From UHGV virus genome UHGV-0174779: a stretch of 64,000 nucleotides of DNA. One strand, 5' to 3'. Origin of the DNA: a virus. A model generated the notes under the pieces. That model made no database searches. It saw only the letters and a program-made list of their open reading frames with translations, and was not told the DNA's origin. Both the position numbers and the translations under genes were made by a program. Positions 4,717 to 12,413 of this stretch are shown here, in pieces. Within the stretch, counting starts at the first letter, position 1, and each line of letters starts with the position of its first letter.

Positions 4717-5793
4717 TTAATCTACGAGGAATTTGAATGCGTCTTCGTGACTAACGCGACCCTCTGCGAATGCCTTGGCAACTTTAGCGTTGTCGGGCTT
4801 ATTGGAAGTACGAGACTTTGCAGCATCAGACTTCACAACCTTGCGTGGAGCACCGGGACGTTTAATCTTAGCCATCACCTGTTGCTTACCTTTATCAAAT
4901 TGGTATGCTTTATGGAGAGCTAGGAAAATAGACGGACGGTTTTCCTTCAATACTTCTTCTTCAGTAGCACCTAAGTCAATTGCGTATTGCATTAAGTTTT
5001 GATATAAGTTTTCATCCCAATTTGGAATCTCACGTTTCAGAATATTAACACATTCAATACTCTTGGCTTGGAAAGCTTCCTGCTCTTTAGCTGCTGCTTC
5101 CTGCTTAATACGGACCTGAGCCTGTTCAAGCTGTTGACGGCGAGCTGTGTACTTCTCTAGGAAACGTTTGTTTTCAACATATGCTTGAGGATCTTCTACT
5201 GCAAGCTTGTCCCAATCAAAACCGTTATAATCTTCAATTACTCGGTCTGCTTCTAAAGACGCTAGTTCTAATACATCCTTCAAACCTACTACACGTTCCT
5301 CGAATGCTTCCATATGACGCTGAAGAGTTGATTCTCGTTCTGTCATATCAGCACCAGTAAGATAGCCATTAGAAAGTTCTTCAATAGTCATCTCACGTCC
5401 ATCAGGAAGGGTGATAACGGTTTCGTAGTCTACATCAAAGACTTCACCTTCACCGTCAGCAGAATCATCTTCATATCCTGCATCACTTGAATCTTCTTCC
5501 TCTTGCTCTTCTGCTTCAGAGGATTCATCTTCATCTTCTTCGACTTCGCCTTCCTCTTCACGATCTTCCCAACCATCTTCATCTTCGAACTTAAGCTCAT
5601 CGCTTTCACCGAGAAGGTCGGTATCAAAGTCAAAATCGTCACCGTCTTTTTCCGGGAACTCATCGTCAATGTCCACTTCTGGTTCTTGTTCAGATTCTAA
5701 TCGACCGAGTTCTTCTTTGAAAGAACCTTTCAGGTCATCCAGTTGGAGGAAAGATTTAAAATCGTTCGGGTCAATATAATTATCTTGTGGCAT
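4717..5793 (-). CDS. Scaffolding protein (putative)
   Basis: 358 aa, extremely acidic N-terminal half (D/E runs) and helical basic C-terminus; sits between portal and capsid genes. Confidence 0.5.
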   Translation of the reverse strand: MPQDNYIDPNDFKSFLQLDDLKGSFKEELGRLESEQEPEVDIDDEFPEKDGDDFDFDTDLLGESDELKFEDEDGWEDREEEGEVEEDEDESSEAEEQEEEDSSDAGYEDDSADGEGEVFDVDYETVITLPDGREMTIEELSNGYLTGADMTERESTLQRHMEAFEERVVGLKDVLELASLEADRVIEDYNGFDWDKLAVEDPQAYVENKRFLEKYTARRQQLEQAQVRIKQEAAAKEQEAFQAKSIECVNILKREIPNWDENLYQNLMQYAIDLGATEEEVLKENRPSIFLALHKAYQFDKGKQQVMAKIKRPGAPRKVVKSDAAKSRTSNKPDNAKVAKAFAEGRVSHEDAFKFLVD

Positions 5794-10483: not shown

Positions 10484-10885
10484 TTACTTACAATCACCAA
10501 CGGACAGATTAAACATCTTACCTAGAGCAATCGTCTCACCTTCCCACGGAAGTTCTGCACCCTTTCCTTCCTCTAAAAGAATAGAGCCGTCGACCAAAAA
10601 TTTTTCGTAGTCTCGCAGTGCGTCGTCTACTAATTCACTCTTGTGAATCCACGTAATTGTTTCTGTACCATCTTCTTCGATGCGAACATCACGATGCCAT
10701 TCATCTTTGGAGGTAATGTAATCATGGAGCATTTCATATTCAGCTTCTTCAATCATCTCAATCATTGCACGAGCATAGTCAGGGAGGTGATCATATTTAG
10801 TAGATTCGTATTCAACTACTTCCAGAGTAGATGGTTGTGTTTTAGTTTTAGAATCAGGGCGAGTAGTGTGGATTAAATCTAACAT
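10484..10885 (-). CDS. Hypothetical protein
   Basis: 133 aa ORF in the leading part of the late operon. Confidence 0.4.
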   Translation of the reverse strand: MLDLIHTTRPDSKTKTQPSTLEVVEYESTKYDHLPDYARAMIEMIEEAEYEMLHDYITSKDEWHRDVRIEEDGTETITWIHKSELVDDALRDYEKFLVDGSILLEEGKGAELPWEGETIALGKMFNLSVGDCK

Positions 10886-10888
10886 AAA

Positions 10889-11116
10889 TTAATATTCCTT
10901 ATAAGTGTGTGGTTTGATAGTGGTGAACGCTCGGAAAAATAACCATCCTAGGCTACTAACTTCCATCGTTGCATCAAATTCTTCATCGTCATCTAAGTCA
11001 ACCAGACGACCAATGCATTCTAATTCTTCAGGGGATATCTTAACAAAGGCACAAGTCTCTGTTCTGAACCGTGGAATCACCTCTGATAAAAAGTCTAATA
11101 TTAAATTCATGATCAA
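10889..11116 (-). CDS. Hypothetical protein
   Basis: 75 aa ORF, start overlaps stop of upstream gene (ATGA). Confidence 0.35.
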   Translation of the reverse strand: MIMNLILDFLSEVIPRFRTETCAFVKISPEELECIGRLVDLDDDEEFDATMEVSSLGWLFFRAFTTIKPHTYKEY

Positions 11117-11469
11117 TCTCCATAATCTAATTTAACCAACCGTCCGCCTAGGTATCCATAATTTTCTGGCTTAAGGTCTGACAGGTAAAATTCTTTAGGA
11201 AGGGAGCCTTTCAAGGTGTGAAGCTCTGCCATCCACAATCCTCTGTGCTTAACCACCTTACACCTCTTCATTATTACTAAGAAACCAAACTTATCAGAGA
11301 AGACTACAGGACAAAGGTTGGGGTCTTTCATCTCAGAGAAATGTCTCTCTTGTAGGTTAGCAAGAATCCCTTTTAAGAAAAGCTTCCAAGATTTAAAAGT
11401 AGGAATCTTGATAGCATAACCTCTGAACAATATAACTGACCTAGTACAACCTCTTAAATCCAATCTCAT
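11113..11469 (-). CDS. Small protein with protein-kinase-like catalytic motifs
   Basis: 118 aa; GYAIKIP (VAIK-like), LQERHF, FLVIMKRC (hinge-like), DLKPEN (catalytic loop), KLDYG (DFG-like) in kinase-like order and spacing. Confidence 0.4.
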   Translation of the reverse strand: MRLDLRGCTRSVILFRGYAIKIPTFKSWKLFLKGILANLQERHFSEMKDPNLCPVVFSDKFGFLVIMKRCKVVKHRGLWMAELHTLKGSLPKEFYLSDLKPENYGYLGGRLVKLDYGD

Positions 11470-11576
11470 AATTCATCTCCCTTCTTTATTCCTAATAAGT
11501 CAGCGGCTATGTAACCAAACACAACAACAATAGGAACAGTGACAAAAAGAATTAAACCCAACAGTAACCATCCCAT
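11466..11576 (-). CDS. Small membrane protein (36 aa)
   Basis: MGWLLLGLILFVTVPIVVVFGYIAADLLGIKKGDEL, GAGGA RBS, stop overlaps next start; below ORF-track size cut-off. Confidence 0.3.
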   Translation of the reverse strand: MGWLLLGLILFVTVPIVVVFGYIAADLLGIKKGDEL

Positions 11577-11624
11577 ACTTTTGTCCTCTGAGTAAAAAAA
11601 AATATAAAGGGCACATCATAAGAC

Positions 11625-12413
11625 CTACCCGTAAAGGCCACCTCACATTAACACCCGTGAGTATACCTGTATTCCTTTTCGTAGTCTTCTTCAGAGAAGC
11701 TACCATATTCATCTTCAGTCATACATCCCTCTGATAAAAGTTAAAACATAAAGGGGACGTCATGTTAAGGCACTATCACATTAAGGCCATGTCACGTTAA
11801 GGCTACTTCATGTGCAGTATCCAATCCCGTAATTAAACCCTCCATAGTTATATATAAGAGTTTAAAATCCTGATTTGACCGAGTGGGGCTAGCCGCTTCC
11901 CGCGCGTTTCCTAAAAAGGGGGAGTCCTCATTTAAAAAAGGGTTATTGGCAATGCCTTTACACCTCCTTCCACGTTCCAACCTTTCCCCGTGCCTACTCC
12001 CCGTTATTCTTTCCCCGTGTATACTACCCAATACATTACCTACCCGTTTATTTAGTTCCCCTTTAAAGAGTGGATGAGAGGCTAGTCTTCCACTGTACCA
12101 ATAGATTGAGGCGATATAATGCCCATGAGTAATAGTCACAAGCCCCCATAGTTTGAATGTAAATGATTCTAAATGTAATGATTATGAGTGCAATAATGAT
12201 GTATGTATTAATTAAGTGGATGATTGTATTTCTTTTAATAATTTCTTTTATTCCTTTCTTTTTTCAGCGTTCTGTTGGTCTTTTTCTTTTATGAGTTGAT
12301 GATTATTTAAGTGGTATATTACTACCGCACTATCTAGCTACCTTTCCCCGTGGTCTGTCCTGCGGTTGTATGTCCCCGTCCTATATAGATAGTAGAAATA
12401 GTTTACCCGTGGG
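11625..12413 (+). repeat. Cluster of eight same-strand CCCGT(G) repeats
   Basis: tacccgt/acccgtg/tttccccgtg at about 11627, 11653, 11985, 11999, 12013, 12042, 12345, 12374 and 12405, all on the plus strand in the divergent control region. Confidence 0.5.
11758..11805 (+). repeat. Three tandem 16-bp direct repeats (TCAYRTTAAGGC-N4)
   Basis: tcatGTTAAGGcacta / tcacaTTAAGGccatg / tcacGTTAAGGctact, perfect 16-nt periodicity. Confidence 0.5.

Follow-up and report, generated by a model that had tools for sequence, protein, structure and literature searches.

A predicted miniature protein-kinase-like domain encoded by a horizontally acquired accessory gene of a Kuravirus

The window analysed here is the whole 64,000-nucleotide (nt) stretch of the virus genome UHGV-0174779. 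It represents a Kuravirus (phiEco32-like) genome, 93–95% identical at the DNA level to MN05, PGN6866 and others. One of its open reading frames (ORFs), 118 codons long, is a horizontally acquired accessory gene which encodes a miniature protein-kinase-like (PKL) domain. In the predicted architecture of the product, MRLDLRGCTRSVILFRGYAIKIPTFKSWKLFLKGILANLQERHFSEMKDPNLCPVVFSDKFGFLVIMKRCKVVKHRGLWMAELHTLKGSLPKEFYLSDLKPENYGYLGGRLVKLDYGD, an N-lobe (beta1-3, helix C, beta4-5) leads through a connector of reduced length to the catalytic loop and to D-Y-G, the motif which binds Mg, with nothing beyond. Every residue on which Hanks kinases rely for ATP and Mg binding and for catalysis is present and strictly selected, namely Lys of beta3, Glu of helix C, the catalytic pair of Asp and Lys, the Mg-binding Asn and Asp of DFG. 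By fold and motifs the protein is a member of the PKL superfamily, and stands outside the Pfam Pkinase, ABC1 and T7 gp0.7 families. Judged from motifs and structural model, the chance that it works as an active, protein-directed phosphotransferase, in host takeover or counter-defence, is about even.

An earlier note on this DNA had read, between 11113 and 11469, a 118-residue ORF featuring the motifs GYAIKIP, LQERHF, FLVIMKRC, SDLKPEN and KLDYG, spaced as in a protein kinase and ending right after the DFG-like motif. The coordinates are exact, the motifs occur in the order claimed, and the strand, which the note had left unstated, is minus. The C-terminus lies one residue past D-Y-G. Spacing resembles that of PKA: Lys21 and Glu41 are 20 residues apart, Asp98 and Asp115 17, against 19 and 18 in PKA. 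The residue set of the PKL superfamily (beta3 Lys and helix-C Glu, catalytic Asp and Asn, DFG Asp) is complete, and its register was confirmed by alignments to TTK and PKA. The D-x-K-P-x-N catalytic-loop signature of Ser/Thr kinases is found as SDLKPEN. A GxGxxG loop, an HRD motif and an activation segment ending in APE were not found: the loop reads G-x-T-R-x-V, Leu-Ser precede Asp98, and no residue segment follows D-Y-G. The helical core of the C-lobe, from helix F onward, which in the superfamily holds the catalytic loop in place and binds the substrate, is missing, the protein stopping before it.

Conservation was assessed on 264 family sequences aligned to the family hidden Markov model (HMM), fractions being calculated over non-gap residues. 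Arg10, Lys21, Glu41 and Asp115 are invariant, and Gly7, Val12, Pro23, Gly34, Asn38, Gly105 and Tyr116 nearly so. Residues of the glycine-rich-loop equivalent are conserved in 257/258 (Gly7), 230/258 (Thr9) and 258/258 (Arg10) sequences, and Asn38, located just upstream of LQERHF in a model helix spanning residues 28–45, in 259/263. Position 98 is always acidic (Asp in 183 sequences, Glu in 78). Position 100 is Lys in 228/261 (87%), position 101 is Pro in 150/264, and Asn (190) and Ser (69) together account for position 103 in 99% of the members. The KEDKND variant includes 150 sequences, the window protein among them. The KEEKSD variant includes 68, about a quarter of the family (P0116, P0257 and P0258 are examples), and features the catalytic loop VENKxDSFG, in which Glu takes the place of the catalytic Asp, and the Mg-binding Asn has given way to a Ser with Asp before it; the pattern suggests a second functional subtype. 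The median length of family members is 122 amino acids (aa), and 88% end no more than 3 residues after the Gly of D-Y-G. Truncation is thus the native state of the family, and reflects neither a pseudogene nor an assembly artefact.

Structure prediction had been proposed in the earlier note as a check, and returned a kinase topology rather than a non-kinase fold. The AlphaFold2 model, obtained from a 93-sequence alignment, has a mean predicted local distance difference test score (pLDDT) of 91.8 and a predicted template modelling score (pTM) of 0.81. Beta strands were predicted at residues 2–4, 10–14, 18–23, 55–58, 65–68, 104–107 and 110–113, helices at 28–45, 76–83 and 92–96. The order of the elements is beta1-beta2-beta3-helix C-beta4-beta5-(helix D/E remnant)-catalytic loop-beta7-beta8-DFG, and the model thus combines the five-stranded N-lobe and helix C with the catalytic loop, the beta7-beta8 pair and the Mg-binding loop of the PKL fold. 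Foldseek searches of the PDB returned kinases throughout the top 50 matches (TTK, PknI, Lpg2603, FGFR1; E ~2e-3, probability ~0.8-1.0). Matches among viral models were small uncharacterised phage proteins of 117–216 aa and giant-virus Ser/Thr kinases. On this modelling evidence, a kinase-like ATP-binding fold is very probable.

Sequence profiles point, if weakly, in the same direction. The family profile, run against all PDB sequences, gave 22 matches, all to the TTK/Mps1 kinase (E ~0.05), with SDaKPeNfGY..klvkiDYG of the family facing SDLKPANF...IDFG of TTK. The alignment of the family profile to PKA by hhalign covers 105 collinear columns (E 0.004), and pairs YAIK with YAMK, QER with NEK, IMKR with VMEY, SDLKPEN with RDLKPEN, DYG with DFG, so that all five motifs are matched as had been claimed. 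Comparable alignments were obtained with PknB (E 0.03), a query validated by strong tblastn matches to phage Hanks kinases, and with a 10-sequence profile built from phage Hanks kinases (E 0.005). The view of the earlier note that the protein is kinase-derived, either a minimal kinase or a pseudoenzyme, is therefore backed by the AlphaFold2 fold, the TTK-only profile matches and hhalign. ABC1 (PF03109) was the commonest sub-threshold Pfam match among relatives, and extends from the catalytic loop to DFG; the best match scored 20 bits (E 4e-4), below the gathering score of 22.9 bits, and the window protein has no ABC1 match, which places the family outside ABC1/UbiB. A single-sequence phmmer search of the PDB hit only a phytase, a match judged to be due to chance.

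The ORF is a real gene. Its ATG is at 11469–11467, its TGA stop at 11115–11113; the start codon overlaps the stop of an upstream 36-aa ORF (ATGA), and 2 nt separate the stop from the start codon of the gene that follows. A clustered metagenomic entry, "hypothetical protein [Caudoviricetes sp.]", matches the protein at 100% identity. A regular-expression scan of the six frames of the window for D.K..N.{8,16}D[FYLI]G found one occurrence only, in this ORF, against a mean of 0.015 in shuffled windows; the full K...E...DxKxxN...D[FY]G pattern occurred in 0/200 shuffles of the window. The motif pattern exceeds chance, since it is rare in, or absent from, shuffled sequences, and 264 homologues keep its residues with little or no variation. 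Relative to a 96%-identical copy in an IMG/VR kuravirus contig (L016), 6 codons carry synonymous changes and 5 replacements, the latter all confined to the variable segment 61–83. A chance ORF with fortuitous motifs could be suspected, the frame being short, lacking a Pfam match and residing in a variable region. Over 1,000 homologous clusters of the same length, a good Shine-Dalgarno sequence with translational coupling, a confidently predicted fold, the absence of the pattern from shuffled sequence and synonymous-rich divergence from the L016 copy leave virtually no room for this explanation, which is ruled out by the number of same-length clusters, the fold and the conservation.

Table 1. 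Features of the mini-protein gene and of its surroundings in the window.
Feature	Coordinates	Strand	Basis or remark
Mini-protein ORF, kinase-like, 118 codons + TGA stop	11113..11469	minus	ORF list and sequence
Shine-Dalgarno GGGAG, 8 nt 5' of the mini-protein ATG	11477..11481	minus	read from sequence
Glycine-rich-loop equivalent G7-C-T9-R10-S-V12, single Gly, family-invariant Arg10	11434..11451	minus	between beta1 and beta2 of the model
Beta3 strand GYAIKIP, residues 17–23, ATP-anchoring Lys21	11401..11421	minus	K21 261/261; aligned to PKA YAMK (K72) by hhalign
Helix-C segment LQERHF, residues 39–44, Glu41	11338..11355	minus	E41 263/263; aligned to PKA NEK (E91)
Beta5/hinge segment FLVIMKRC, residues 63–70	11260..11283	minus	M67 217/264; aligned to PKA MVMEY, PknB IVMEY
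Catalytic loop SDLKPEN, residues 97–103 (Asp98, Lys100, Pro101, Asn103)	11161..11181	minus	gap-free against TTK HSDLKPANF, PKA RDLKPEN
Beta8 and Mg-binding KLDYG, residues 113–117, Asp115	11119..11133	minus	D115 261/261, Y116 238, G117 237
Two-ORF cassette (36-aa and 118-aa ORFs), ~470 bp	11111..11592	minus	alignments to MN05, phiEco32
36-aa hydrophobic, single transmembrane-like ORF MGWLLLGLILFVTVPIVVVFGYIAADLLGIKKGDEL, first half of the cassette	11466..11576	minus	gene call on ENA, Logan contigs
phiEco32 gene-4 homologue, 73 aa from ATG at 11110, PHROG 12698	10889..11110	minus	directly downstream of the mini-protein ORF
Gene-5 homologue, 133 aa (231 aa in phiEco32)	10484-10885	minus	matches PHROG 12176 positions 88–210 only
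Terminator-like hairpin GCCTCCGTTGGGAGGC + TTTTTGTG	10478-10463	minus	same arrangement at phiEco32 nt 1634–1684
gp36-type promoter element TAATGTAGA, upstream of gene 6	10447-10439	minus	identical arrangement at phiEco32 nt 1634–1684

The mini-protein belongs to a large family. It matches PHROG 4301, of unknown function (E 8.8e-35, 121 bits, residues 4–117 aligned to positions 42–167 of 225). A profile search of a word-indexed database returned 188 homologues. When 1.84 billion representatives were searched exhaustively with HMMER, 1,130 clusters, defined at 50% identity, were obtained at a cutoff of E<=1e-3 and 575 at the stricter E<=1e-10; with few exceptions they are 115–135 aa long and matched end to end; the family thus comprises at least 1,130 clusters. 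Homologues were detected by tblastn in 116 of 50,697 phage records, where identity to the window protein does not exceed 57%. Carriers include 121Q-like jumbo, T4-like, Aeromonas, Pseudomonas, Erwinia, Ralstonia and other phages, and some genomes house 2–3 copies. Two scans of GTDB representative genomes, made with patterns that were probably too narrow, confirmed no relative. A few longer members carry unrelated N- or C-terminal extensions; when these were searched for domain fusions, no Pfam match emerged. P0145 (1,073 aa, E 6e-26 to the family profile) was discarded, as its 16 near-identical 67-residue repeats are almost certainly the spurious translation of repetitive DNA. In a few GenBank records distant members are called "serine/threonine kinase", with no experimental evidence attached. 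No description of a phage mini-kinase or of PHROG 4301 was found in the literature, and in a compendium of anti-defence proteins the only kinases mentioned are those of T7 and JSS1. On these searches the family is undescribed, and its loss of the C-lobe is unlike all described members of the superfamily, including the "minimal" OspG, SteC, Bud32, RIO and ArkI.

Homologues reside in diverse genomic settings. In the Tequatrovirus QOTSP the gene belongs to the variable region of ipI and tRNA genes, close to a homing endonuclease (L002 2501–2881); in phage JS10 it is directly upstream of RNA ligase 2 (rnlB; L015 2977–4354). These settings may hint at an RNA-related role, though they are not conserved. 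In PaMx11 the homologue is found among ligase, exonuclease and nucleoside triphosphate (NTP) hydrolase genes, and in unclassified phages after lysozyme or near the small terminase gene, or with primase-polymerase neighbours. In Acinetobacter prophages (L010-L012) it lies between capsid and tail-tube genes. There (5001–5767) a 136-aa protein with an HExxH motif (zincin-like) overlaps the homologue, immediately downstream. In phage 121Q the homologue is preceded by an 83-aa very hydrophobic, membrane-protein-like ORF.

Partner genes were sought by all-against-all BLAST of the ORFs located up to 3 kb away in 38 loci, corresponding to 18 distinct groups. No conserved gene able to supply the missing C-lobe is common to the 18 groups, and therefore no phage gene would provide it in cis. 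Neighbour matches proved to be antisense artefacts, homing endonucleases, and one protein of 162–189 aa restricted to the 121Q and PaMx11 groups. The latter is encoded just downstream of the mini-kinase gene in these unrelated groups (PaMx11_74, L013 4344–4895; 121Q, L019 5711–6226); its N-terminus, GLPRSATTW, resembles the loop of sulfotransferases which binds 3'-phosphoadenosine 5'-phosphosulfate, and the PaMx11 copy is annotated as "putative nucleotide triphosphate hydrolase". The mini-protein gene behaves as a solitary mobile accessory gene.

The mini-protein and Hanks kinases such as TTK/Mps1, PknB and PKA have in common Lys of beta3, Glu of helix C, D-L-K-P-E-N and D-[FY]-G, with the order unchanged and the spacing almost so. 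In the catalytic segment 10 of 21 residues (97–117) are common to TTK and the mini-protein, with no gaps, and the predicted topology of N-lobe and catalytic loop superimposes on that of the TTK, PknB and PKA type. In contrast, Hanks kinases measure ~250–300 aa and the mini-protein 118. The latter has one Gly and an invariant Thr-Arg in place of GxGxxG, LSD in place of HRD, a shortened helix D/E region, and lacks the activation segment, the P+1 loop, the APE motif and helices F-I. Bud32, RIO1/2 and the archaeal RNA kinase ArkI/Ark1 (the latter 173–216 aa) keep a helical C-lobe, unlike the mini-protein, and gave no sequence match in any search made; the catalytic loops of Bud32, RIO and ArkI are not known to carry the Lys-Pro signature. 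OspG and SteC, grouped with NleH, have a depleted C-lobe and need an outside factor, and offer a precedent for a partner-dependent minimal kinase. In contrast to the phage family, which stops before helix F, they keep helices E and F (and G) and a putative activation segment, for a total of ~200 aa. OspG needs E2~ubiquitin, SteC phosphorylation at S379 (PMC13395416).

A functional model for the mini-protein is offered by other phage proteins. The T7 gp0.7 kinase (T7K) and JSS1_004 are accessory, non-essential and promiscuous kinases encoded near the genome end, and counter many defence systems (PMC13645617, PMC12345140). T7K combines a 242-aa kinase domain with a DNA-binding shut-off domain, and has DPV in place of DFG (PMC13645617, PMC12345140). 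The mini-protein differs in having DYG and no C-terminal domain, and is no member of that group; T7 gp0.7 aligned by hhalign to the family profile over 16 columns only, in the wrong region (E 0.86, probability 0.04).

If the mini-protein is an active enzyme, Mg-ATP would be bound between Lys21/Glu41 and Asp115/Asn103, and Asp98 would act as the catalytic base in the transfer of the gamma-phosphate. The D-x-K-P-x-N motif points to descent from Hanks Ser/Thr kinases, and makes protein Ser/Thr the likeliest acceptor: to our knowledge its Lys-Pro is specific to Ser/Thr protein kinases, and is not found in small-molecule kinases of the same fold. Arg10, extraneous to the kinase motif set, aligns with the tip of the glycine-rich loop (F54/G55 position of PKA), and Asn38 is one turn before Glu41; these invariant residues would bring additional polar groups close to the phosphates, and may make up for what the protein lacks. 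As there is no activation segment, the site would be permanently open; as there is no helix F, a hydrophobic face would have to be shielded, either through self-association or through contact with a host protein. The enzyme would probably work as a homo-oligomer or in complex with a host protein, and its active site would be open and show little selectivity. A role similar to that of T7 gp0.7, in host takeover or counter-defence rather than in virion assembly, is proposed. The gene is accessory, being absent from the kuraviruses of the phage collection and located in variable regions in jumbo, T4-like, Aeromonas and Pseudomonas phages.

Several observations weigh against an active protein kinase. 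The canonical GxGxxG, the His-Arg of HRD, APE and helices F-I are all missing. SteC constructs which end before helix F (200–377, 210–375) are inactive (PMC13395416), and a lone N-lobe with a catalytic loop may thus be unable to phosphorylate proteins unaided. This evidence cuts both ways, at least as we read it, since SteC 202–375 is dimeric in the crystal structure (PMC13395416). Alignments by hhalign to real kinases are weak (E 0.004-0.03, reported probability <10%), and kinase homology consequently rests mainly on the predicted structure and the register of the motifs. The window protein has no Pfam match even at E<=10, and neither it nor its neighbours match NCBIfam or PADLOC models at E<=1; Pkinase (PF00069) was matched by none of 93 relatives nor by the longer members tested, at thresholds of E<=1 or E<=0.1. 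The position between capsid and tail-tube genes in Acinetobacter prophages is unlike that of a host-takeover locus.

The missing lobe lends itself to other explanations. The protein could be a pseudokinase or a nucleotide-dependent binder, which engages ATP or a host protein and serves as switch, decoy or inhibitor with no phosphotransfer. The C-lobe, helix F included, is normally needed to assemble an active kinase and is absent here; truncated SteC lacking helix F is inactive, and even the minimal kinase OspG is active only with a partner (PMC13395416). About a quarter of the family, moreover, are KEEKSD members, where catalytic Asp and Mg-binding Asn are changed to Glu and Ser. These two changes co-occur as one coherent variant in 68 sequences, unlike what is expected of random decay. 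In pseudokinases at least one residue among Lys, catalytic Asp and DFG Asp has usually been lost; across 264 divergent sequences, in contrast, Lys21, Glu41 and Asp115 are conserved in 100% and position 98 is always acidic. An active enzyme is favoured over a pseudoenzyme because of this strict invariance, and the pseudokinase is held to be unlikely, though it deserves to be kept in mind. A similarly low probability is assigned to an active ATP site of the same fold serving a non-protein acceptor, as in a small-molecule, nucleotide or RNA-end kinase or an ATPase (compare the aminoglycoside kinases and the archaeal tRNA kinase ArkI, of the same superfamily). The lobe which binds protein substrates is wholly missing, Arg10 and Asn38 near the phosphate site could hold an anionic substrate, and the neighbourhoods in JS10 (RNA ligase 2), QOTSP (ipI-tRNA) and PaMx11 (ligase, exonuclease, NTP hydrolase) fit such a role. 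Small-molecule kinases of this fold, on the other hand, typically have HGDxxxxN with no Lys, and D-x-K-P-x-N with both Lys and Pro is the signature of Hanks Ser/Thr kinases. They also bind their substrates through C-lobe helices, which are absent here, and the RNA-ligase/tRNA setting is not conserved in the 18 locus groups, IME341 having the gene and no rnlB.

A virion or neck structural protein with incidental likeness to kinases is far less probable than either. The location in Acinetobacter prophages, between the major capsid and tail-tube genes and among small connector-sized genes, would suit it, as would the position in the window, upstream of terminase and on the same strand as structural genes. 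Elsewhere the position varies (replication/nucleotide modules in PaMx11, variable regions in T4-like and jumbo phages, lysozyme or primase-polymerase neighbours), kuraviruses make virions without the gene, and invariant catalytic residues are unexpected in a structural protein. The "virion structural" label found in Shewanella phage SXP01 pertains to neighbouring genes, not to the homologue. An active phosphotransferase directed at proteins remains the preferred reading.

In the window the gene is carried by a cassette of two ORFs. Positions from ~12083 downward on the minus strand correspond to nt 1 onward of the linear phiEco32 genome; the window thus spans the joined genome ends, and the ORF is ~600–970 nt from the left end. 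The cassette is inserted between the shared ribosome-binding site TCAGAGGA, which follows phiEco32 gene 3, and the gene-4 ATG. It is absent from phiEco32, MN05 and the other kuraviruses of the phage collection, where no record exceeds 60% protein identity, and is carried by the L016 contig and by a few metagenomic contigs. Base composition bears no foreign mark, the G+C content being 0.38 in the cassette and 0.37–0.44 in neighbouring genes. The 36-aa ORF is translationally coupled to the mini-protein ORF and was inserted together with it. It is kept beside the gene in L016, with 6 replacements, mostly hydrophobic-to-hydrophobic, and 1 synonymous change, and matches no family. The gene-4 homologue is conserved in kuraviruses lacking the cassette, and is therefore no dedicated partner. 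In the gene-5 homologue the N-terminal third is missing in this phage, as denoted by the partial PHROG match; the "ABC transporter" name of this family finds no support in Pfam or NCBIfam matches.

The earlier note had located the ORF at the head of the late operon. It does lie upstream of the genes for packaging and structure, which share its strand, and the head of their transcript is ~670 nt downstream; a terminator-like hairpin and a promoter intervene, and the gene therefore lies outside the late transcript, in a short leftmost unit (11592 to 10479, minus strand). Promoters used by the phiEco32 gp36 sigma factor feature a single element, tAATGTAtA, and one has been mapped before gene 6 (PMC8948821). 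By its sequence, TAATGTAGA is most likely the corresponding P6 late promoter, heading the terminase, portal and capsid transcript. A sigma-70 scan found no convincing promoter for the leftmost unit.

Short repeats were also noticed. GCCTTAAYRTGA occurs in three head-to-tail copies with a 16-bp period (11760–11803, minus strand; 0.03 expected), just upstream of small gene-2/3-like ORFs, and related copies are found in phiEco32 at nt 411–450; the array may act as an operator or as iterons, or represent clustered promoters of the leftmost unit. Three copies of CACGGGGAAA (11983–11992, 12010–12019, 12343–12352, minus strand; 0.07 expected by chance) were found, and the region 11860–12352 (minus), around phiEco32 nt 1, is highly conserved in kuraviruses. 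TAATGTATA, the phiEco32 middle/late promoter element, occurs in six exact copies (2221, 2311, 43222, 47609, 47681, 56134; 0.61 expected), which presumably mark other gp36-dependent promoters of this phage.

In kinase structural biology, helix F and the C-lobe are regarded as an indispensable scaffold, and a family devoid of them challenges the assumed minimal architecture. The family either sets a new lower limit to kinase size, or shows a new route by which a kinase is completed in trans, through either dimerisation or association with a host protein. On the predicted structure, it may be the smallest kinase-type enzyme known. A bolder possibility, tentative and rather doubtful, is that the ~120-residue domain is an active kinase, either self-sufficient or homo-oligomeric, and the smallest catalytic unit of the PKL superfamily, operating with neither helix F nor any lobe for substrate binding, and that it serves many phage lineages as a mobile, promiscuous module which phosphorylates host proteins or counters defence, having arisen independently of T7 gp0.7. 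Phage kinases are of interest because recent work has shown that the T7 gp0.7 family, through promiscuous phosphorylation, disables many defence systems; if the proposal is true, the mini-proteins would join it as another class of phage kinases, unrelated to it and far more widespread.

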